From positions 65,038,001-65,102,000 of the forward strand of contig OX597821.1 in NCBI GenBank assembly GCA_951406725.2: a stretch of 64,000 nt of DNA. The letters run 5' to 3'. The stretch comes from Octopus vulgaris (Eukaryota). The position numbers and the translations under genes are program-made. The first letter of the stretch is position 1; every line of letters starts with the position of its first letter. The notes beneath the pieces are model-generated. The model was not told the origin of the DNA and ran no database searches. It saw only the letters and a list, made by a program, of their open reading frames with translations. Below, piece by piece: positions 1-19,082 of this stretch.

Positions 1-140
1 AGTTCTACTTCGTCTTTCATCTTTTTGGGGTTCATAAAATAACTAACAGTTGTGCACTGAATCGAGTCGTTGACTAAAATTCTTCAAGGTGGTGCTGTAG
101 CATGATCGCTGTTAAATGAATGAAATGAGTAAAAGATGAA
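1..140 (+). mobile_element. Degenerate SINE fragment: family-A central core joined to family-B/LINE-type 3' tail
   Basis: tcgtctttcatctttttggggttcataaaata resembles the family-A core; ggtggtgctgtagcatgatcgctgttaaatgaatgaaatgagtaaaag resembles the family-B tail. Confidence 0.55.
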
Positions 141-257
141 AAATAAAGCAGTGTTGTCGTTCTAGATCAGCTCTAGAAGTCCTACAATCAAAACATTAAC
201 ACCGTAAACATCCTGTATCTATAATTATCAGGGTCTACCATTATTCAATGGTTCTTT

Positions 258-472
258 AAGGCAGCGAGCTGGCAGAATCGTTAGCACGCCGGGCTAAATA
301 CTAAGCGGTATTTCTTCTGCCGCTTCGTTCTGAATTCTAATTCCACCGAGGTCGACTTTGCATTTCATCCTTTCAGGGTCGATAAATTAAGTACCAGTGA
401 AACACTGAGGGCGATGTAATCGACTAATCCCTTCCCGGAAAAGTTCAGACTTTGTGTCCATTGTAGACAGGA
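258..472 (+). mobile_element. SINE family A, monomer (tRNA-derived head, MetaSINE-like central core)
   Basis: Head gagctggcagaatcgttagcacgccggg, B-box-like gaattctaattcc, core ggtcgactttgcatttcatcctttcagggtcgataaattaagtaccag, repeated many times in the window. Confidence 0.85.
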
Positions 473-835
473 TTACTCAATGTGTTTTGCAGAATTAAAA
501 GCCAGTTTATATCTCCATCTCTTATAGTAGACAATCTTCTACCCTACGCACTCCTCTCTGCTCAGTAGTTACTCTCCAACACATGGCTCTCTGCAATCTT
601 CTCCCTGCCCACGTCTTTCTCACAGGTATCGACTTTCTCCTGTCTATTCTCGCCATGAACTCTATCTCTTCCTCCTGACCCACTAAGTTAAAAACAATAA
701 ATGTAACCTGAATGAGATTTTCGTTGCTTTTTCCAACAAACACCTCCACGCATGAGGACATCTTGCTGTTTATTTGCTGTATTACATACTTGACTGGTGT
801 CATCGTCATCGTTGTTCCCATTGCTTTTATATTTT

Positions 836-1203
836 TCCTTTATTTGTTTCAGTTATTAGACTGTGGCCAAGCTGGGGCACCGCCTTGAAAAAAATTTGAG
901 TCGAACGAATCGGTCCCTCTTCTTTTATTTTTTTTAATTCTCGCACTTATTCTATCTGTGTCTTTTTGCCGAACCACTAAGTTACATAGACGTAAACACA
1001 CCAACACCGGTTGTTAAGCGATGGAAGGGACTGGGACTCAAAGATATACAGACACATGCACACACACACACACATACACATATAAAGGTTTTGGTTGGGT
1101 CGAGGCAATAGTAGAAGACACTTGCCCACGGTGCAATGGAGTGAGACTGAACCTGCAACCATGTGGTTCTGAAACAAACTTCTTACCAGACATCCATGCC
1201 TAT
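836..1203 (-). mobile_element. SINE family B (tRNA head, CORE-like domain, internal microsatellite), internally deleted
   Basis: Reverse complement of the full copies at 9990-10482 and 25349-25830. Confidence 0.85.
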
Positions 1204-1569
1204 GTCTACTGTTGTTATCTTTTATTAAGAGCGCAGAGAGAAGTGGGAGGGAGACATCCTCAAATCGGTGACCCTTCTTGGATACTTACAACAGCTAATA
1301 GTATCCAAGGAGATACTATCTCTTATACCAGATGACATATAAAGTCATCACCTAAGTAACTTAGTTATGTTTCAACTCAGGACGCGAAGAGCCGCATGAA
1401 ATAGTGCAAGAGATTTCCCAGCGGAGGCTCTCACATTTCAGCCAGTCCATCGTTCTACAGTGGTACTTTATCTATCAACTCCTCACCATCACCACCAGAA
1501 GAATGAAAAGAGAAGCTGAACTCAGAGGCGGAGGTGGGGATTTGACTCAGAAAGCAAGAAGCTGGAGTA

Positions 1570-1897
1570 TGTTGTTTGTTTGTTTGTTTGTTTGTTTGTT
1601 CCTTCTCGAGCCATGCATGGCTTATAAAGGCCGGTTTCCCGGTTTCATTGGCGTAAAGATTCCCCACCGGAAAGGGACGTCGGTCTGTCACAGGTGAGCT
1701 GCTAGATGCAAGAGGAAAGAGTGAGAGAAAGTTGTGGCGAAATAGTCAGCAGAAGTTCGCCATTACCTGCTGCTTGGAACCGCATGAAGCTTAGGTGTTT
1801 CGGTCATAAACACACACATCACCCGGTTTGAGATTCGAACCCGCGATCCCTCGACCGCGAGTCTTCTGCTGTAACCACCAGGCCATGTGTCTCCACC
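1570..1897 (-). mobile_element. SINE family D with (AACA)n tail
   Basis: Minus-strand tRNA-like head with A box tggcctggtgg and B box ggttcgaatct; second partial copy at 10660-10860. Confidence 0.8.
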
Positions 1898-2494
1898 GGA
1901 GTATATTACAGCATGATATTTCATCCTGTTCTCTCATGTCTCCCTCAAATCGTAGTCACGTTAGTCAGCGTTGTTGCTGCTGTCACGCTACTATGTGTTT
2001 GAGTTGCTATAAGAGTTGGCACTGTATGACATACTTACTATACTAGTGTTGTCATTGCTGGTGCGGTTGTTGAGGTTAATGAAATATTTAGAGCAATGTC
2101 TCTTAAGCATTTCTCTGTTCCCATCTTTATCAAATCCCCAAACACTTTCGCATCTCCCACTTGTAAATGACAAAACAAAGTAGTCTTGTATACAAAATAA
2201 TTTATCGTAACATTAAAAACGTCATTGTTTTAATTAAATATTAACGGTCTTAAAATCAACATTACAGAAAAGAAATTTAGTAAAAACTATGTGAATAATG
2301 ACAATGAATTTTTGTCCACATAAAAGCATAATTCCTTCTACGATCCCTAAAGAAGTCTCCATATTTGCTCTAGAATTCTTTAAATTTCTTCCATCGGATA
2401 TGACAACTTTTCCGTGCGCAAGAGAATCGCTGTGGTAGTCATTGCTATTTAAAATGTAAAATATGTAGTCCTCTCTTTAACACATTATATTGAT

Positions 2495-2710
2495 TTCAAG
2501 TTTTGGGACACAAAGCCAGTTGTTTGTGGAGGTAAGGGCGAAGTCGATTAAATTGACCCCAGTACTCAACTGGTACTTATTTTACCGACTCCAAAAGGAT
2601 AAAAGGTTGTGCAACGATCTCTGTGGAAATTGAACGTAAAACAGAAAGACGGATGAAATGCCGCTAAGCATTTCGTCTGGCGGAGTAGCGATTCTACCGA
2701 CTTGCGGTCT
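2495..2710 (-). mobile_element. SINE family A, diverged
   Basis: gtcgattaaattgaccccagtactcaactggtacttattttaccgactccaaaaggataaaagg matches the reverse-complemented family-A core. Confidence 0.75.
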
Positions 2711-4006
2711 TGCCAAACAGTAGATACCTCGTATTAATGTTTTATTAGTACTTCCAAAATTAATCTCAAGGATAGTAGATCTAGAAAATCTAAGCAAATA
2801 ACGATAAAGAAATGCTTAACTGAAAGCAATTTCACTGCTAGAAACAACTTTTTCTCTGGAGTCTTGAAATGTTTCGAAATTTGACCAGAATAATTTGCCT
2901 TCACATTAAGAATTGCAGCGTTAGTCCCAGAAGTTGTTCTGTTAGTAATTTTTAACTCATGATAATCTGAGGTGGTCAAGTGAAACCTAATCGAACATAC
3001 TTATGTCAGGTATGCAGTCGGCTGGACCGCTAAACTTCACTCCATTGATGTATTATTAAAGTAGGATTGTGGACGCATTGATGATTGAGTATTCAGAGGC
3101 GAAGATAGCTTAGTAATCATGTGGTCTGCTGCACGCTCTCATTACGTAACATTTTAAGCTAGTGTGTTTATTTTTTCTTGTTTGTTTCCCCGTAAACTGA
3201 TATCAAACTAGATCCTGTACAGGTATTGTTGTTGCACCAATAGCTGGTAGATTACGGAAGTTCACACCTGAACATTGAGATCCTCGTGTTCGATTTTTTA
3301 GCGTGCCGTATCTCTATAAACTTGCGTCAACTCAAGCTTTGTAAGAGGAAGCTGACTGCTATATTTTGTAGAGAATATGACCACGTGTTTGATGTTCTTC
3401 GCTGCCTTGTTGTTGAGATCTAGGACAAATCAGAATGAGAAGACAATCTAGTCATAATAACCTCGTGAAAAGCATTCCAAATGTGACCACACCGTTTTTT
3501 CCCTAGGTGCTGAGTGTCTAGAAGTACACGTTCCAGAGCGATATTTTGTGTGAGCTGGAGGTAGATTTATCTGCTACTTCAGTAGGCCCGTATACCATGT
3601 AGAGACACCCATTATGTTTATCAGACCGTTTGGCACGGCCATTTTGGCGCCGCCTAAATAGTGTCACTGATTCGACGCTGACTCTTTTGACATAGGACGT
3701 TTTTATGACTCATTTTCCTTACCAGTTTCTCCTCAAATGTATGTGCTATGAATAAGCCCACTCCCTCCATGAAATCTATATTGCCTGAACGGGTGCAAAT
3801 GTACCCCATATCAGGTGTCGAACAGATCGCAGAGCGATGTAAGATGAAGATTGCTGCTCAAGATTATGAGCACAACATCATAACCACTAGGCTATATGTA
3901 TGGTAGCTAATGCTATGGTTTCTGTAGTCGTTATCACTTTATTTGTGTTGTTGCGGTAATGGTTGTTATATTGGTAGTCGAATTAGTTCGATGTGGTCGT
4001 AAATAT

Positions 4007-4180
4007 AGTTCTATATTTAAGAAATGAGGAATTATGTACGTTATTTACGTTTGACGGATATTTGTCCACATATTGTTTTGTTGTTAACACAACGTTTCGG
4101 CTGATATAACCTCCAGCCTTCATCAGACGTCTTGGGGAAATTTCGAACCTGGGTTCTCATTTCTAAGATATTTTTCGATG
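4007..4180 (-). mobile_element. Penelope-like element terminal (pLTR-type) fragment
   Basis: Carries a minimal hammerhead motif; inverted near-copy at 5119-5265. Confidence 0.7.
4086..4131 (-). ncRNA. Minimal type I hammerhead ribozyme motif
   Basis: Minus strand reads gacgt-CTGATGA-aggctg-gaggttatat-cagcc-GAAAC-GTT-gtgtt: intact core boxes, stem II ggctg/cagcc, wobble-rich stem I. Confidence 0.7.
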
Positions 4181-4183
4181 TTG

Positions 4184-4223
<40 letters not shown>

Positions 4224-4224
<1 letters not shown>

Positions 4225-4770
4225 GAGTGAGCGAGCAGAGCATGCCATCGAAGTGACACTGGGGTAAAATATACGAAGCCCAGTATACCCATCATGACTA
4301 CCCGTCTGATAAGGGTACACCAGGCACATGCATCACAACCATATGTGCGCGACATGGTGATCTCATATCAAGATAAACAGCACATGACCTTGCAGGTGGA
4401 GCCCAGTTAGAATTTTCTTCAGATCGAGTAACCCATCCCGCTCAAAAGGTCCCTGAATAAGGCTTGTTTAAGGATGTTGAACGAAACACCCATGTTTCCA
4501 GAGGTGAATTATTCAAACCCCAAAGAATCCTTCTCAACACATGGCTATGATGCTCCCCCACTACTTCTACTCGTGATCAGAGATGCACATATCGTCAGCC
4601 ACTAAGGGACATGCTCAACTGGTTATGGTCAAACAACTGACAAGCAAATCTGTGGTATTGAGCAGAATATTTGCTGTAGCTCATCTTTTATACCAAGACA
4701 AAACAATGTACATGATAACACTTCCAATCAGTTAAGATCAGAAGCCATGAGAGCCACTGCCTGGTACTGC
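4224..4770 (-). mobile_element. Unclassified ~550 bp interspersed repeat ending in (AAT)n (probable non-LTR-derived element)
   Basis: Diverged inverted copy at about 8177-8492; bounded by (ATT)n tracts. Confidence 0.65.
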
Positions 4771-4786
4771 ATTATTATTATTATTA

Positions 4787-4817
<31 letters not shown>

Positions 4818-5003
4818 CAATACCACCATTATTATTACCCTCATTCCCATCATGACCAATATTATCAATAAGCCAATATTATAAATACAGCCACCATCAG
4901 TATTATTATTATTATTATTATTATTACTACTACTACTACTACGACTACTACTATTATTACTATTATTATTCAGGTCACTGCCTGGAATCGAACTCGGAAT
5001 AAT

Positions 5004-5099
<96 letters not shown>

Positions 5100-5118
5100 A
5101 ATGATGATGATGATGATG

Positions 5119-5265
5119 ATATCGAAAGATACCTGAGGAATGAGAATCCAGGTTCGAAATTTCCCCAAGACACCTGATGAAAGCTGGAGGGTGTATCAGC
5201 CGAAACGTTGTGTTAACAACAATCAAGATGACGTCAAATATCCGTCAAATGTAAATAATGTAAAT
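5119..5265 (+). mobile_element. Penelope-like element terminal (pLTR-type) fragment
   Basis: Inverted copy of 4037-4180 with hammerhead motif. Confidence 0.7.
5169..5214 (+). ncRNA. Minimal type I hammerhead ribozyme motif
   Basis: gacac-CTGATGA-aagctg-gagggtgtat-cagcc-GAAAC-GTT-gtgtt; stem I gacac/gtgtt, stem II gctg/cagc. Confidence 0.72.
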
Positions 5266-5606
5266 GATATGGTCGTAAATATTTTGTTTTTTTTGCTGTC
5301 ATTGTTGCGGTGTTGCATGGGTTGGTATCAAATGCTGTTGCTATAGCTACCACGGTTATTGCCACAGTTTGTGGCCGTCTTTGTAGATTCTCATGTCATA
5401 ATTTCTGCTGTTGATTCTGTAGTTACAATTGCTGTAACAACAGAAACTTCTGTCGGTGATGGTTGTGCTCATATTATTGGTAGACAATAGTAGAGTTAAC
5501 ACTATTGGTTGCGGTGATAATGGTAGACGTAGTGTTAATAATATTGGTCATGATGGGAATGAGGGCAATAATAATGGTGGTATTGATAATAATAATAATA
5601 ATAATG

Positions 5607-5640
<34 letters not shown>

Positions 5641-5744
5641 TAATAATAATAATAATAATAATACTGATGGTGGCTGTATTGATAATATTGGCTTATTGAT
5701 AATATTGGCGGTTATCATAACTGTATCTGTTCTGATAAGAATGG

Positions 5745-5915
5745 GTTCAAATTATCGCCCAAGGCCAGCAATTTTAGGGAAAGGGGTAGGTCGATTAAAT
5801 TGACCCGAGTAACCAACAGATATTTATTTCGTCGACCCTGAGGGATAAAAGGCAAAGTCGACCACGGCGGACATTTTACCTCGACGTGCTAACGATTCTG
5901 CCAGCTCGCCGCCTT
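5745..5915 (-). mobile_element. SINE family A, internally deleted
   Basis: Ends in tgctaacgattctgccagctcgccgcc, the reverse complement of the head. Confidence 0.75.
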
Positions 5916-6024
5916 ATGCTGTATTGATAATACTGTCTGTGACATAATGGTAGTGTTGATAATATGGGGTGTGATGCTATGATGCAGACGTTGATAATAT
6001 TATTAGTGACGGTGATGAGATTGT

Positions 6025-6400
6025 GAGCTGGCAGAAACGTTAGCACGCTGGGCGAAATGCTTAGCGGTATTTCGTCTGTCGCTACATTCTGAGTTCAAAT
6101 TTCGCCGAGGTCGACTTTGCCTTTCATCCTTTCGGGATCGATTAAATAAGTACCAGTTACTCACTGGGATCGATATAATCGACTTAATCCGTTTGTCTGT
6201 CCTTGTTTGTCCTCTCTGTGCAGTAAAGAAATAGGTATTTTGTTTGTTTTTACTTTCCGAGTTCAAACTCCGCCGAGGTTGACTTTGTCTTTCATCCTTT
6301 CGTTGTCGATAAATTAAGTTCCAGTTGCGTACTGGGGTCGATTTAATCGACTGGCCCCCTCCCCTAAAATTTCCGGCCTTGTTCCTGGAGTAGGAAAGAA
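6025..6400 (+). mobile_element. SINE family A, dimer
   Basis: One head followed by two B-box+core units with different tails. Confidence 0.85.
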
Positions 6401-7354
6401 TAATTGTCGTGAGTGTAATATGGTTTATGTTAGTAAAGTGTAACTGGTTGTGTTGCTAATGGTTGTTGTCAAGTTAATGGAAGAAAATATTAGTGATGGT
6501 GGTGGTGGCATTGGTAATTAATTTTTCTCTTTATTTTCTACTTATCTCTTATCAATAATCTATCAATTTTACACATTATAAAACCTGAATATTTATCTGG
6601 TTCCTTTTTTTGTCTCTTACACCTCTCTGTCTCAATTTCTAATATTGCTTCTCATTTCCTTTTTTTTTTTGCCGTTTGTTAATCCTACCTTAGTTTCTGT
6701 TCTTTTCTTTTTGTTTTTTTTTTTTGTTATTTATCCCACTTTCATTCTCTCACTATCACACTCACTCTCTATTCCTTAGATTCATTCTTTCGTTTATTCT
6801 TTCATTCATTTATATTTCTTTCTTTTTGCTTGTATATTCTCTACTTCACGATACTTCCTTACGTTAGTGCTATATCTTATCTTCCCCGGTTTTTCACACA
6901 TACAGGCTCACTATATTTTTATTCTCTCTCACTCTCTCACTCAGGCACACAGTTACTTCTTGTCTATATTTTATCGGTTTCTCTCTAGCACAACACTTAC
7001 TGCTCTCCTCTATTCTACCCAACGTCTGTCCTTTCTGTTTACGTCGTTCGTACGCTCATTCTTATAACATCTTTACAGTGTCTGTCCTCACAGATTCTTC
7101 ATTCACAAATATTATAAACTACGCAGTCATCCTGCATCAATTTCCTCTTTAGCAATCTCACAACTGATTCTTTATTTTTCCTTCACCCTCTCCTTCTCTC
7201 TTTCTCTCTCGCTTCATCTTAAACTACTCGACTAATTAATATTTTTAGACGTACTTGAACCTGTCAATCTCAAACACTCTATATCTGTACCGAGTGCATT
7301 CCAGAACATTCGAGACGTTTTAGGAACGGCAGTTATAACTGTCAAAGTTTAATG

Positions 7355-7576
7355 TAATCGTTGTTCACCTATCGTGCACTCAGTACATCGCGGTTCATCT
7401 ATCGTGTATTCAGTACATCGCGGATTTTTCGAACTAATATATGTAATTTTATATCGCAGACTCCTCAGTATATCCGGGTTTCTGCGGCCAATAGGTATTT
7501 ATAATTTTTTGGAATCTAATTATTTCTGTGGGAAGTTTTGGAACGTAACACCCGCGATAGTCGAGGGATTACTGTA
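7355..7576. mobile_element. pogo/Tigger-type MITE remnant
   Basis: Right end cccgcgatagtcgagggattactg-TA (rc TA-CAGTAATCCCTCG) and short internal repeats tcagtacatcgcgg. Confidence 0.55.
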
Positions 7577-7719
7577 TATCATTATTATACATCTAATAAG
7601 CTGATCTGCAAATATTTGTTATTCTAGATTAAAGGAGATTACTGTATTAGCATTTTGAGCACGCCCACCAAACACTGCTTGTCACACGTCTCACAGCTGT
7701 CTAGTTTCCAGAAAGCAGT

Positions 7720-8176
7720 CGGATCATTTGGAAACACGTTACTCAATAACGTTTTGTGATAATTTGAGCAAAAATGCTACAGGAACTTTGAAAATGTTCC
7801 AGGCTGCTTACGGATAAATATTTTTTTTTACTAGCAAAAGAAGTTCAAGGAAAACAGAGAAGAGGTGAGAAACGATAAGAGATGTGGGAGGAAGAGGAAC
7901 GTTAGATCATCAGAACCGATTGAGAAAATAGGCAATTTTCTGAATGAAAAGCATCGTGCGTCAACAAAGACAAATAAGCATACAGTTTGGTGTTGGAGTA
8001 ACAACAGCCCTAAGAATTATTCATGAAGATCAAAACGCGAGGAAAATTAATGCAAAGTTTGTTCTCAGGGCGCTTAGTGAGGAACATCCTGGTAACCAAC
8101 CACTTGGCAGGGATGGTTTCAAGACTGTTCCTCACCTTCCCCGCAATGCAGACGTTGCTCCCTGTAACTTTTGGTG
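7720..8176 (+). pseudogene. Internally deleted mariner transposase remnant
   Basis: Broken translations LETRYSITFCDNLSKNATGTLKMFQAAYG (N-terminal HTH), RKINAKFVLRALSEE (WVPxxL linker), KTVPHLPRNADVAPCNFW (YSPDLAPxDF motif). Confidence 0.8.
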
Positions 8177-8492
8177 AATATTCTGCTCAATACTACAGAG
8201 TTTCTTGACCTTAACCAGTCGAGCATGTGTGCATCTCTGATCACGAGCAAGGGTAGTAAGCAAGCACAAAAACCATGTATTGAGAGGGATTCTTTGGGAA
8301 TTCAATAAATCACTCCTGGAAACATAGGCGCTTCGTTATCCTTCTTTAACGAAACTTATTCAGTGACCTCTTAGGCGGGATGGGCAACTCGACCCGAGAA
8401 AAATTTTAACTGGGCCCATCTACAAGGTCATGCGCTGTTTAACTTGATATAAGGTCATCATGTCGCACATATATTTGATGCATATTCCTGGC
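8177..8492 (+). mobile_element. Diverged copy of the 4224-4770 repeat
   Basis: tgtgcatctctgatcacgag and aactgggcccatctacaaggtcatgcgctgttt match the reverse complement of 4320-4675. Confidence 0.7.
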
Positions 8493-8723
8493 TTGTGCAT
8501 TAGGCTTGTGCATTTTGCTTCAGTCTCACATGAAATTCACGCACCTCCCATATTCTCAAGCTTGCGATATATATTGCCACCAGATATACGGGTTCCACTG
8601 GTGTGCAGACCATATCAAAGGGGTGAAAGAGATCCATGAGGTTTTAAGCAAATCTTATTTGAAGCTTAAAATTCTATTCGACTCTTGATGAATATGCTTC
8701 AGGTATTGATGACCTTATAGACA

Positions 8724-8776
<53 letters not shown>

Positions 8777-8799
8777 TGACTTTCATCTGTTAATCTTTT

Positions 8800-9075
8800 T
8801 TATCTTATACTTGTTTCAGTCCTGAGTTTGCGGGCCATGCTGGGACACGTCTTGGAAGAATTTTTTAGTCGAATGACTCGACTCGACTGTTTATTATTTT
8901 TCAAACGTGGTACTTATTCTATCAATCAGTCTTGACGACTCGTTAAGTTACAGGGACGTAAAAACAACCACACTACTTGTCAAGTACTAGAGGGGGACAT
9001 CTTCGGACACAAACACAGGTGCACTCGTGCACACATGCATACACACACATACATACACACACATACACACACACA
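8800..9075 (-). mobile_element. SINE family B, 3' half, diverged
   Basis: tacttgtttcagtc...ggccatgctgg...taagttacagggacgtaaa. Confidence 0.7.
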
Positions 9076-9117
9076 TATTCACTTATATATTTATATTAAT
9101 AATAATAATAATAATTC

Positions 9118-9785
9118 CCTTTACTACAAGCACAAGGCCTGCAACTTGGGGATAGTCGATTTCATCGAACACCAGTGCGTAACTGATACTTATTTCATCG
9201 ACCCTGACGGATGAAAGGCGAAGTTGACCTAGGCGAGATTTGAACTCAGAACGTAAAGTGGAACGAAATACCGCTAAGTATTTTGTCCGGCGTGCTAACG
9301 GTTTTGCTGCTAACCGCCTTAATTAAAAATAATAGTAACAACAACAACTCAGAACGTAACGACAGACGATATATCTATTTCTTTACTACCCACAAGGAGC
9401 TGAACATGGACAGACAAACGGATTAAGTCGATTATATCGACAACCAGTGCGTAACTGGTACTTATTTAATCGACCCCGAAAGGATGAAAGGCAAAGTCGA
9501 CCTCGGCGGAATTTGAACACAGAACGTAGCGACAGACTAAATACCTATTTCTATTTCTTTATTACCCACAAGGGGCTAAACACAGAGGGGACAAACAAGG
9601 ACAGACATAGGTATTAAGTCGATTACATCGACCCCAGTGGGTAACTGGTACTTAATTTATCGACCCCGAAAGGATGAAAGGCAAAGTCGACCTCGGCGGA
9701 ATTTGAACTCACAACGTAACGGCAGACTAAATACTGCTAAGCATTTCGCACGGCATGCTAACGATTCTGCCAGCTCGCCGTCTTA
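9118..9785 (-). mobile_element. SINE family A multimer array
   Basis: Three copies of the core (cgaccccgaaaggatgaaaggcaaagtcgacctcggcggaatttgaac or close variant). Confidence 0.85.
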
Positions 9786-9989
9786 ATGATGATAATAATG
9801 CCGCTACTGCTGCTGCTGCTGATGATGATGTTTACAAGACTAAGTAAACTAATTTAGTAATTCAAAGACGAAAACAAAATCTATTCGATCAACTGGGAAT
9901 TAATTAGCACTGTCACGCCGTATAGAATAGGTGGAGAGAGATGTGATCTCCGCCTAGGAGAGCTTTACCAAATACTTATTTAATATAAA

Positions 9990-10482
9990 CATAGGAGTGG
10001 CTGTATGGTACGTAGCTTTCTTACAAGCCACATTGTTCCGGGTTCAGTCCCACTGCCTGGCACCATGGGCAAGAGTCTTCTACTATAGTCAAGGCCCGAC
10101 CAAAGCCTTGTGAGTGGATCTGGTAGGCGGAAACTGAAAGAAGCCGTCGTATATATGTCTATGTATGTATGTATGTATGTATGTATGTATGTGTGTATGT
10201 ATGTATGTATGTATGTATGTATGTATGTATGTATGTATGTATATATGCATGTATGTATGTATATGTTTGTGTGTCTGTGTTTGACCCTCCCCGCAACATC
10301 ATTTGACAACCGATGCTAGTGTGTTTACGTCCCCTTAACTTAGCGGTTCGGCAAAAGAAACCGACAGAATAAGTACTAGGCTCATAAAGAATAAGGCCTG
10401 GGGTCTATTTGCTCGACTAAAAGCCGGTGCTCCAGCATGGCCAAAGTCAAGTGACTGAAACAGGTAAAAGAGTAAAGAGTAA
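9990..10482 (+). mobile_element. SINE family B, full length
   Basis: A box tggctgtatgg, B-box-like ggttcagtccc, CORE-like ggcaccatgggcaag, (TATG)n centre, (GAGTAAA)n tail; resembles described octopus CORE-SINEs. Confidence 0.9.
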
Positions 10483-10659
10483 AACCACACAAGGAAAATA
10501 ACACATACGCAAATTCCATATAATGGAATACATGAAACAGTAAAGTATACTTATAAACTAGTAACCAAACCCCCAAAATTGAATTTAAATAAACAAAAAT
10601 AACGAGCAAAGTAGCTCGTGCTAAAATCTCTATGGGAGATGCCGGTAGTAACTATGTTG

Positions 10660-11188
10660 TTGTTGCTTGTTCCTTCTCGAACCACGCCTGGCTCATAAGG
10701 GCCGGTTTCCCGGTTTCTTTGGCTTATAGGTTCCCCACCTAGACGGGATGCCGGTCCGTCGCAGGTGATATAATACGCAGGAGGAAAGAGTGAGAGAAAG
10801 TTGTAGCGAAAGAGTCAGCAGAAGTTCGCCATTATCTTCTGCCGGAGCACATCGCTCGGTCAGAGATTCGATTCCGCCGAGGTCGACTTTGCCTTTCATC
10901 CATTCGGGGTCGATAAATTAAGTCCCACTTACGCACTGGGATCGATGTAATCGACTTAATCCGTTTGTCTGTCCTTGTTTGTCCTCTCTGTGTTTAGCCC
11001 CTTGTGGGTAGTAAAGAAATGTGTATTTCGTCTGTCTTTACGTTCTGAGTTCAAATTCGGCCGAGGTCGACTTTGCCTTTCATCCTTTCGGGGTCGATAA
11101 ATTAAGTACCAGTTGCGTACTGGCGTCGCTCTAATCGACTGGACCCTTCCCTAAAATTTTCGAACCTTGTGCCTAGAGTAGAAAAAAT
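10660..11188. mobile_element. SINE D 3' part (minus strand) fused to a headless SINE A dimer (plus strand)
   Basis: 10660-10860 matches 1595-1830; 10865-11188 matches family A. Confidence 0.8.
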
Positions 11189-12597
11189 ATTAGCTGGTTT
11201 AGCAGATGTACCGAATCTTTTATCTAGATATATAGAAGTTGTGTAAAGAAACGTTTCTTCAGTAACTTCCTCTGTTGCACTAGATATAATGTTTGCAGTA
11301 AAATGTGATTAAATATCCTCTTTTTAGAAATTAATATAGACTGATGTGGCAAAGTTGCCAATCTTTTATCGTCCACTTGCTTTTTGTGGTCTTTTGCAAT
11401 ACTGAATTACTGTATGGGAACAGTCAGCTTATCATTTTATTCTCCCGTTTATGCTTTGAATATGCGCCTCCTATACACAACGTCACATATTTCTAAATTC
11501 TTTCTATGTGTTACATGATTAACGATCAATGTTAAAAGGAGCCTTTAAAATTTCACCATCAACAATTCCACCATCATGAACGAAAACGACAGCATGGTGT
11601 TTTTGTAAAAAAACATTAAATTTCTCTAAAAATTTTTACATTTCCACAGCAGTTTACTCCCGAAACTGTCAATCAATCTACTCATAGGCACTGATATTCG
11701 GGTATCAGGATTGTTTACCGAGGTGCACCTAAGGAAAACTTAACGTTTATCCTGCATTTAGTTGACGGGCAATTCCAGAGCGTAGGTGATATTGTTTTAT
11801 TGCTGGGCGAATCATCAAGATCCACTACGTGTAACGGAGCTTTTGGTGAAATGTAATTCAAATGTGTTCAAATATTTCCTGATAAATTCAGTGTTTTCTT
11901 AAAAATTGAAATTGATAGAGATATCGTCAAGAAATACGTTTTGTGAATATTTTGTCACGTTTCTTGATTTATATATAAAAAAAAATTCGCGATTATGCGG
12001 TTTCCATTTGTTACAACTGTCTTATCAATTTTATGTTTGTGTTCTTAGTGTTGAATAAGAAAACCTGTAGTCCATTCAACACGCTTTATCTAAGTTTTGC
12101 ATTCATGACAGACTGTAGTTTGAAGTTCAACATACTTCACACAATATTTCCAAACATGCGATTTGGATAATCTTATTTGATAGGGTTTAATCCGCACATA
12201 TAAATCATATTGATACATGGGATATAAGGATACTGGCATCGTCATTAAAGATTTCAAATATGTTTACCTTAATAGTAAATATCTTGAACTATGATTCAAC
12301 AAAAATCTGTCTGTTTCTATATCGTAAAACATTGTTTTAAAACAACACGCCTTATACAATTTTATACAATTGAGTGCTATACGGGCTGAGATTGGAGAGT
12401 AAGGAGGTTATCAAACCGTACACGCTGAAATATATCAAAAAATGAAGAGCAGGTTCAAAGAAATAAACGTTTCTACATAATAAAAATTTTCATTTGGGTT
12501 ATAATAGTATTTATTATACAGACAATGTTATCGAAAGAAATATAAAGGAAAGGAGCAATGAAAATATCAAAGGTTTCTCTGGGCAAGAAGGATTCTA

Positions 12598-18870: not shown

Positions 18871-18880
18871 TATATATATA

Positions 18881-19082
18881 TATATCACTGACGAAGAGAG
18901 GGCTGTTATAAGCTAACCCTGAAATCGGTCCGATATGGTAATAATGGAATTTTTTAGAAATTTCTGTCGACCTTTTTTCGAGTAGCGTGCGTATTGTGAA
19001 AAAATTATATGGTTAATGGACAATATGTCCAATTTTTCGGCATATTTGGCATTAGAAATGTTTTCGTTTGCCCTTATTTATG

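Follow-up and report, generated by a model that had tools for sequence, protein, structure and literature searches.

A tail-out pair of Penelope-like terminal repeats in Octopus vulgaris and a tRNA-like head that may engage RNA polymerase III

The 64,000-nucleotide window considered here (the whole stretch of DNA that was analysed; Octopus vulgaris, assembly GCA_951406725.2, contig OX597821.1, positions 65,038,001 to 65,102,000) carries at 3990-5282 a composite cassette. It is very probably a tail-out, or outward-facing, pair of 5'-truncated pseudo-long terminal repeats (pLTRs) of a Penelope/Poseidon-type retroelement, set inside a target-site duplication (TSD), likely laid down in one event and likely enlarged afterwards when two other sequences entered its (AAT)n, the template RNA having probably been made by RNA polymerase III (Pol III) from the head of the pLTR. 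A pLTR of this family consists of a tRNA-like head, an (AAT)n tract and an arm bearing a hammerhead ribozyme motif. Tail-out pairs are the family's normal insertion form; that layout is already known, and what is unusual in the family is the putative tRNA-like promoter of the pLTR together with an open reading frame (ORF) free of T-runs. The locus itself is now a decayed one-off, an ordinary Penelope insertion with later passengers, and its parts are the following.

3990-4006, + strand: TSD, left copy; 17 bp as read, with a core of about 12-13 bp going by the TSD lengths of the family
4007-4179, - strand: left pLTR arm, 173 bp; its long ("tailed") end lies at 4007, and it shares homology with codons 1 to ~55 of the Penelope ORF
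4086-4131, - strand: minimal type-I hammerhead of the left arm; core intact, two G-U wobbles in stem I beside the core (4127, 4128)
4180-4224, - strand: (AAC)(AAT)n tract of the left pLTR, outer part
4225-4770, - strand: 546-bp non-coding repeat inserted in the (AAT)n, likely a later insertion
4771-4815, - strand: (AAT)n tract of the left pLTR, middle part
4816-4901, - strand: circularly permuted (B-A) copy of the flank at 5534-5709, likely a later templated insertion
4902-4970, - strand: (AAT)/(AGT)n tract of the left pLTR, inner part
4971-5000, - strand: last 30 bp (3' end) of the left pLTR's tRNA-like head; contains the B box at 4984-4993
5001-5120, + strand: (AAC)(AAT)(GAT) tract of the right pLTR, truncated within the tract
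5121-5265, + strand: right pLTR arm, 145 bp, with its short (tail-less) end at 5265
5169-5214, + strand: minimal type-I hammerhead of the right arm; the G10.1-C11.1 pair is broken by a G-to-A change at 5182, G being the family base
5266-5282, + strand: TSD, right copy
5534-5709, + strand: host flank, A-(AAT)n-B in order, from which the permuted copy inside the cassette derives

The anatomy proposed by the initial annotation was thus recovered: a 17-bp duplication bracketing the unit, inverted ends of about 145-175 bp, and an interior holding (ATT)n, the 546-bp repeat, the flank copy, a B-box fragment and the (AAC)(AAT)(GAT) tract, all of which were located. The two 17-mers differ by one base and have no further copy at up to three mismatches in the window; the two arms are identical at 127 of 145 positions, the outer end of the left arm being about 30 bases longer than that of the right. 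Four other sequencing runs contain ends of family copies at 4007 and 5265, supporting the arm limits. About five bases at one end of the 17-mer and three at the other also resemble the family's own termini, and the real stagger of the cassette may therefore lie closer to the family mode of 12-13 nt than to 17.

The coding element and its terminal repeat

The head-(AAT)n-arm unit is the terminal repeat of a coding retroelement: it follows the part of the ORF that encodes the endonuclease and, at the other side, reads in frame into the ORF start. Walking from one head locus that runs upstream into endonuclease-like coding sequence gave the order arm, ORF of about 2.4 kb, head, (AAT)n and arm. 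Among 30 endonuclease-region loci, most have head and arm after the ORF end; upstream of the ORF start, head-(AAT)n-arm is present at 9 of 30 loci, of which four are partial tandems. The majority frame is open for 655 codons from the ATG of the arm and includes a reverse transcriptase (RT) domain (PF00078, E=5.5e-10). Its C-terminal region shows, read by eye, the GIY-YIG/CCHH pattern of Penelope-like elements (PLEs), and two homologues carry PF01541; the one C-terminal fragment scanned with Pfam gave no GIY-YIG match. The protein is 60-72% identical to its best matches and 40% identical to an Anolis protein.

Judged from these predicted features, the element is an endonuclease-bearing (EN+) PLE of the Penelope/Poseidon type, combining an RT plus GIY-YIG-type ORF, tandem pLTRs that overlap the ORF, a minimal hammerhead and an inverted truncated copy. 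Its placement with Poseidon follows protein similarity and the apparent absence, again by eye, of the additional zinc finger of Neptune/Nematis. The Penelope origin suggested by the initial annotation, along with a link from the arm to an autonomous ORF, is borne out by this in-frame junction; the (AAT)n core and the B-box piece, which had been regarded as captured, turn out to be fixed parts of the pLTR. All 30 loci retrieved with a distant protein query belong to the same family, and this search yielded no second Penelope family that could serve as a control in this genome.

Copy numbers were estimated for a 2.8 Gb genome from exact 20-mer counts calibrated by match rates in sampled loci, and are rough, the samples being small. 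A DNA search with the arm returned 3,647 candidates; exact 20-mer matches numbered 6,592 for the arm, 3,917 for the head, and 843 and 258 for upstream words. After calibration these correspond to about 25,000 arms, 15,000 heads, 2,300 copies just upstream of the head and 1,600 another 64 nt upstream; the raw count of the word at -94 is low owing to a two-state site, for which calibration was applied. A head-selected sample comprised 89 loci (90 were fetched and one was dropped as the same cassette), each required to match an exact 34-mer with two CpGs. At 78 of the 89, the 75-bp head and (AAT)n are followed by an arm within 1.5-2 kb downstream; at 7 of the remaining 11, another repeat, read from the sequence, directly follows the (AAT)n.

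Two further arrangements of the element were seen. In loci L232, L234, L237 and L252 (roughly 1500-2000 in the element's orientation), pieces of the ORF 5' region break off at body position 231-232 and are fused to a head at -6 or an arm at 83. They may come from a non-autonomous subfamily with a deletion or from template jumping off the 5' end of the RNA; the query behind them covered about 200 nt, which biases ends near that point. At L031:7580-8190, two inverted RT fragments of the same element abut a long-ended arm, without head or (AAT)n.

The tRNA-like head and the template RNA

The head aligns without gaps to a genomic tRNA-Arg(TCG) gene at 42 of 66 positions (z ~8), and its A and B boxes are canonical. 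This comparison covered 30 tRNA loci of a few types, so that Arg is a tentative choice of parent tRNA. The 5' ends of the 89 head-selected copies cluster at the head: 53 lie between -7 and +3, 27 inside the head, two at -14 and -21, and seven farther upstream, these seven being the only copies that extend into the ORF. Calibrated copy number falls 6.5-fold across the head start, against 1.45-fold over a similar distance in the ORF. The step at the head start likely marks the start of transcription, since reverse transcription of a pLTR RNA begins at an internal start site and runs back to the RNA's 5' end.

A second line of evidence comes from the ORF. Runs of four T terminate Pol III in animals, and the sense strand of the 2,586-nt majority sequence (minimum coverage 18) contains none. 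A synonymous shuffle would yield a mean of 2.9 (P=0.027) and a codon-position model a mean of 4.7 (P=0.005), and thirty decayed copies hold 27 TTTT where 99 are expected. The bias does not extend to other Penelope-like ORFs: in 70 of 80 metagenome loci, those with at least 1 kb of homologous ORF, 538 TTTT were observed against 348 expected, and none of the 52 with an expectation of at least 2.5 lacked the motif. A and B boxes were found near the ORF at one of the 80 loci, as part of a separate SINE-like (short interspersed element-like) insert.

Taken from the sequence, these patterns lean slightly towards Pol III as the maker of the template RNA, reading through the whole element. A fuller account is about evenly balanced. 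According to it, this would be an autonomous coding retrotransposon with a captured tRNA promoter, from which Pol III makes a template of about 2.8 kb; the ORF would have been purged of TTTT, an internal RT start would remove the need for a terminator, the same promoter would give rise to SINE-like short copies, and an enzyme dimer would twin-prime one RNA at a long and a short site. The protein could still come from Pol II read-through RNA.

Several observations pull the other way. Other tRNA types score near Arg, ARAGORN called no gene in nine head loci, and Rfam gave no tRNA match for the head. Before calibration, raw word counts also dropped 3.3-fold inside the ORF, and the 89-locus sample may favour short copies, run-through being 8% there and about 15% by calibrated counts. 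The sense strand also lacks GGGG (base shuffle, P=0.03; synonymous shuffle, P=0.28), and the TTTT result concerns a single family (n=1).

The most serious competitor, to which we give roughly one chance in three, treats the head as a passenger: a tRNA-type SINE head would have fallen into the pLTR of an element transcribed by Pol II, from an internal promoter or by host read-through, and the 5' pile-up would reflect stalling or snap-back of the RT at a GCCC/GGGC mini-hairpin or an RNase P cut of the tRNA-like fold. Uncapped Pol III RNA is a poor messenger, which suits this account, as do four of 30 loci, which are tandems whose RNA began upstream of a head. Drosophila Penelope, for its part, has a LINE-like (long interspersed element-like), TATA-less internal promoter and an intron (PMC2377424). 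A fold-back signature at the head start in 20 of the 89 copies also fits, but fold-back requires bases -6 to -1, so the RNA reached 5' of the tRNA +1, which disfavours RNase P as the sole cause, and a 4-bp hairpin would be a weak stop for most cDNAs. A passenger head, moreover, leaves the absence of TTTT over 2.6 kb unexplained, other Penelope-like ORFs being enriched in the motif.

Paired insertion and the hammerheads

An inverted arm lies upstream at 60 of the 89 head-selected loci, and both arms are present at 54. Arm ends in the family fall at 136-160 or at 176-183, and 44 of 45 classifiable pairs combine one long with one short end, the remaining pair having two long ends. A TSD score of at least 9 was reached by 31 of the 45 pairs compared with 5 of 250 shuffled flank pairs, TSD length ranging over 9-19 nt with a mode of 12-13 nt. 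Within 2 kb of the first 100 arm matches there were 12 tail-out neighbours, one same-strand and no tail-in. Paired arms have 23 non-consensus, non-CpG bases in common, where permutation gives a mean of 6.9 and a maximum of 19 in 2000 rounds (37 of the 54 pairs could be tested). On either strand, what follows the TSD is antisense to the element, an order that fits cDNA primed from two 3' overhangs. The initial annotation had proposed that both arms arrived in one event, each primed from one side of a staggered cut, and made this depend on inverted pairs being more frequent than chance; the long-plus-short rule, the TSD enrichment and the tail-out bias support it on both counts.

The evidence is not uniform. 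The window's own two arms have no non-consensus base in common, 15 of the 30 best arm matches lack a partner within 1.5 kb, a search for partners of single arms out to 8 kb found no new ones, and 14 of the 45 pairs have no TSD at the threshold used. In contigs from four other runs (organism labels A-D), all of which cross the right junction and two the left, no empty site was found, all junctions covered being occupied.

Insertion may be pictured as follows. Pol III would start about 6 nt before the head and read through the pLTR or the whole element because it meets no TTTT. The endonuclease would leave 3' overhangs of 12-17 nt, as the geometry of the pairs and the in vitro behaviour of Anolis Poseidon suggest. 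Of the two internal start sites, one overhang would prime at the long and the other at the short, the template probably being a single RNA or RNAs from a common source. Microhomology would then join the cDNAs at their 3' ends: AAT in the cassette, where the inversion junction has 3 nt of it (4998-5000), and in many copies the GCCC/GGGC mini-palindrome with which the head begins. Repair would fill in the remainder. Later, to go by divergence, the left (AAT)n would have received the 546-bp element, and repair of a break in it would have drawn on the nearby flank.

It is unlikely that the pairs arise instead by self-priming, in which one primed cDNA folds back and makes the second arm, the short end being the join of the second strand to the target. 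Inversion-junction palindromes have been so interpreted in Adineta (PMC3846280), and both the fold-back signature in 20 of 89 copies and the excess of variants common to paired arms would agree with it. The head-selected monomer, usually the longer of the two, has the short end in 24 pairs and the long end in 20, however, so that neither end marks a first strand, and the junction of the cassette is a 3-nt microhomology rather than a palindrome. Anolis Poseidon, furthermore, cuts and extends both strands in vitro from two internal start sites (PMC11167929).

Still less probable, and in our estimate very unlikely, is that the arm is a separate SINE mobilised by Penelope or a self-moving, ribozyme-bounded unit resembling a terminal-inverted-repeat (TIR) transposon. 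Most copies are short, begin at the tRNA-like head and behave in a SINE-like manner; yet the same head-(AAT)n-arm ends the coding element and carries its ORF start, and the unit is accordingly its partner's own terminal repeat rather than a non-coding family apart from it. The asymmetric ends, the TSDs of 9-19 nt and the confinement of the composite to a single locus likewise differ from TIR transposons and from miniature inverted-repeat transposable elements. Non-LTR retrozymes consist of head-to-tail tandem units with a type-I hammerhead in each (bioRxiv 10.64898/2026.07.22.740005), an arrangement at odds with one same-strand against 12 tail-out neighbours among 100 arm matches. Two independent opposite insertions plus a chance 17-mer repeat can be set aside: about 25,000 arms exist in the genome and the window's arms lack a common variant, but the tail-out bias, TSD enrichment and long-plus-short rule, together with arms equally diverged from the family majority (10/172 and 8/145), leave this next to no probability.

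The hammerhead core that had been noted in each arm was found as a minimal type-I motif, the call being predicted from the core motif and stems read in the sequence. In both motifs position 9 is followed by an additional base, and stem III is a palindrome. Minimal PLE hammerheads as described by Cervera and de la Pena (2014, PMC4209133) are type I, with an extra base between positions 9 and 10.1, a G10.1-C11.1 pair, a palindromic 15.2-16.2 and a short helix I; in the parts available of that account nothing differs at the family level, the window's right copy alone being without G10.1. The right-arm hammerhead is probably impaired by this loss, and the left one probably so by its two stem I wobbles. 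Rfam gave no hammerhead match at E<=1 in window positions 1-12000, and single-strand folding gave no full monomer hammerhead, the expected outcome for a dimer-type motif. No selection on the hammerhead was detected in inserted copies (54 of 1106 core bases changed, against 488 of 9535 in the remainder). The two hammerheads lie on opposite strands, and therefore one transcript would not be excised by both, which speaks against the ribozyme-bounded unit of the initial annotation. A second hammerhead-like motif of unrelated sequence, also with a palindromic stem III, lies at 18880-18950 (+) and probably belongs to the pLTR of a different Penelope-like family.

Passengers, age and relation to known elements

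All 10 full copies of the 546-bp repeat that were compared are bordered by AAT left and right, and the repeat is also found away from cassettes. The window copy differs from the majority at 11 of 528 non-CpG bases (2.1%); between the flank copy and its source there are 2 differences in 86 bases, while the arms stand 5.5-5.8% from the family majority; both passengers are therefore likely younger than the pLTR pair and entered the (AAT)n later. The initial annotation had allowed cargo to be taken up at insertion or afterwards, and the lower divergence favours the second over the first. A marker for the flank copy has exactly two matches genome-wide, within the cassette and 260 bp to its right. 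The composite has thus never spread or moved as a unit, contrary to the spreading non-autonomous unit once envisaged.

The flank copy runs B-A, its source A-(AAT)n-B, and the source in four other runs has 24 extra bases that lengthen the B/A microhomology to about 15 nt; the comparison with these runs skipped repeats at 4762-5129 and so covered the source but not the copy. A break in the (AAT)n may have been repaired from the neighbouring tract with one slip at the B/A microhomology, or a small circle may have re-entered. Foreign DNA of at least 60 bases is present in 15 of 54 pairs, ten of which, by a reading of printed ends, contain the 546-bp repeat or LINE 3' ends, and such 3' ends occupy the same (AAT)n tract in other copies. 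By their motifs these LINEs are presumably R4/Dong, although Pfam gave only a weak zf-RVT match, and the 546-bp repeat is probably mobilised by an R4/Dong-like LINE; its 3' end matched none of the LINE 3' ends found in this analysis.

The repeat itself (for example window 4225-4770, L056 and L057) is very abundant, non-coding and (AAT)n-targeting; its 5' end is constant, its sense strand contains T-runs, and it shows no evident tRNA head. An older, partial copy, 73% identical, lies at 8177-8491. Other high-copy SINE-like repeats lie next to the cassette at 5735-5910 and 6025-6380, including a 119-nt direct pair at 82%. In the L029 pair, the (AAT)n of the spacer contains a hairpin-like element whose inverted ends are long. 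An arm divergence of about 5.5% would correspond to about 15 million years, if the scale given in PMC13282606 applies.

The inverted-pLTR layout put forward by the initial annotation is real, and it had been described before, in Adineta and Anolis and for PLEs generally. Arkhipova et al. (2013, PMC3846280) reported in Adineta vaga Penelope elements, such as Pen2a and Pen3a, inverted pLTRs around an insert, TSDs of 8-10 bp and a tail of about 31 bp on one pLTR only, with the first ORF codons inside the pLTR, unrelated DNA between solo pLTRs and palindromes at inversion junctions. The octopus family shares with them the inverted pLTRs, the TSD, the one-sided tail, the ORF start in the pLTR, foreign DNA between pLTRs and inversion-junction palindromes. 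Where Adineta has few copies and a proposed TATA/Inr-like promoter, the octopus family has a tRNA-like A/B-box head, about 25,000 arms and later cargo in the (AAT)n. The 5' truncation, partial tandems, inverted 5'-truncated copy and often one-ended tail of 30-40 bp summarised by Craig et al. (2021, PMC8557442) likewise match, and the sections of that review at hand describe no tRNA-derived pLTR.

Frangieh et al. (2024, PMC11167929) showed that the Anolis carolinensis Poseidon PAc cuts and extends both strands and that two internal RT start sites define the tail. PAc shares with the octopus family an RT with C-terminal GIY-YIG and a hammerhead at the ORF start; in vitro its two strands showed no difference in start site, unlike the one of each found in 44 of 45 octopus genomic pairs, and the available text mentions no tRNA head. 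Schistosoma Sm-alpha SINE-like repeats, as reported through a review (PMC6765202), place a Pol III promoter before a hammerhead as the octopus pLTR probably does, but they are non-coding tandem repeats, whereas in octopus putative promoter and hammerhead form the terminal repeat of a coding element inserted as inverted pairs. Searches of the PLE literature, judged mostly by listings and otherwise by selected passages, with Repbase, Dfam, subscription papers and supplements outside their scope, turned up no report of a tRNA-derived pLTR or of a PLE transcribed by Pol III, Sm-alpha being the nearest case.

A template RNA made by Pol III, if confirmed, would blur the boundary between SINEs, which are non-coding products of this polymerase, and autonomous retroelements, and would offer one route by which Pol III/hammerhead repeats of the Sm-alpha kind could arise from a Penelope pLTR. 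With 44 of 45 pairs obeying the long-plus-short rule, the one-sided tail already known becomes a quantitative limit on the way in which the Penelope enzyme uses its two start sites. The (AAT)n within the pLTR, for its part, seeds landing sites for other repeats and helps to explain the nested repeat clusters of this genome.

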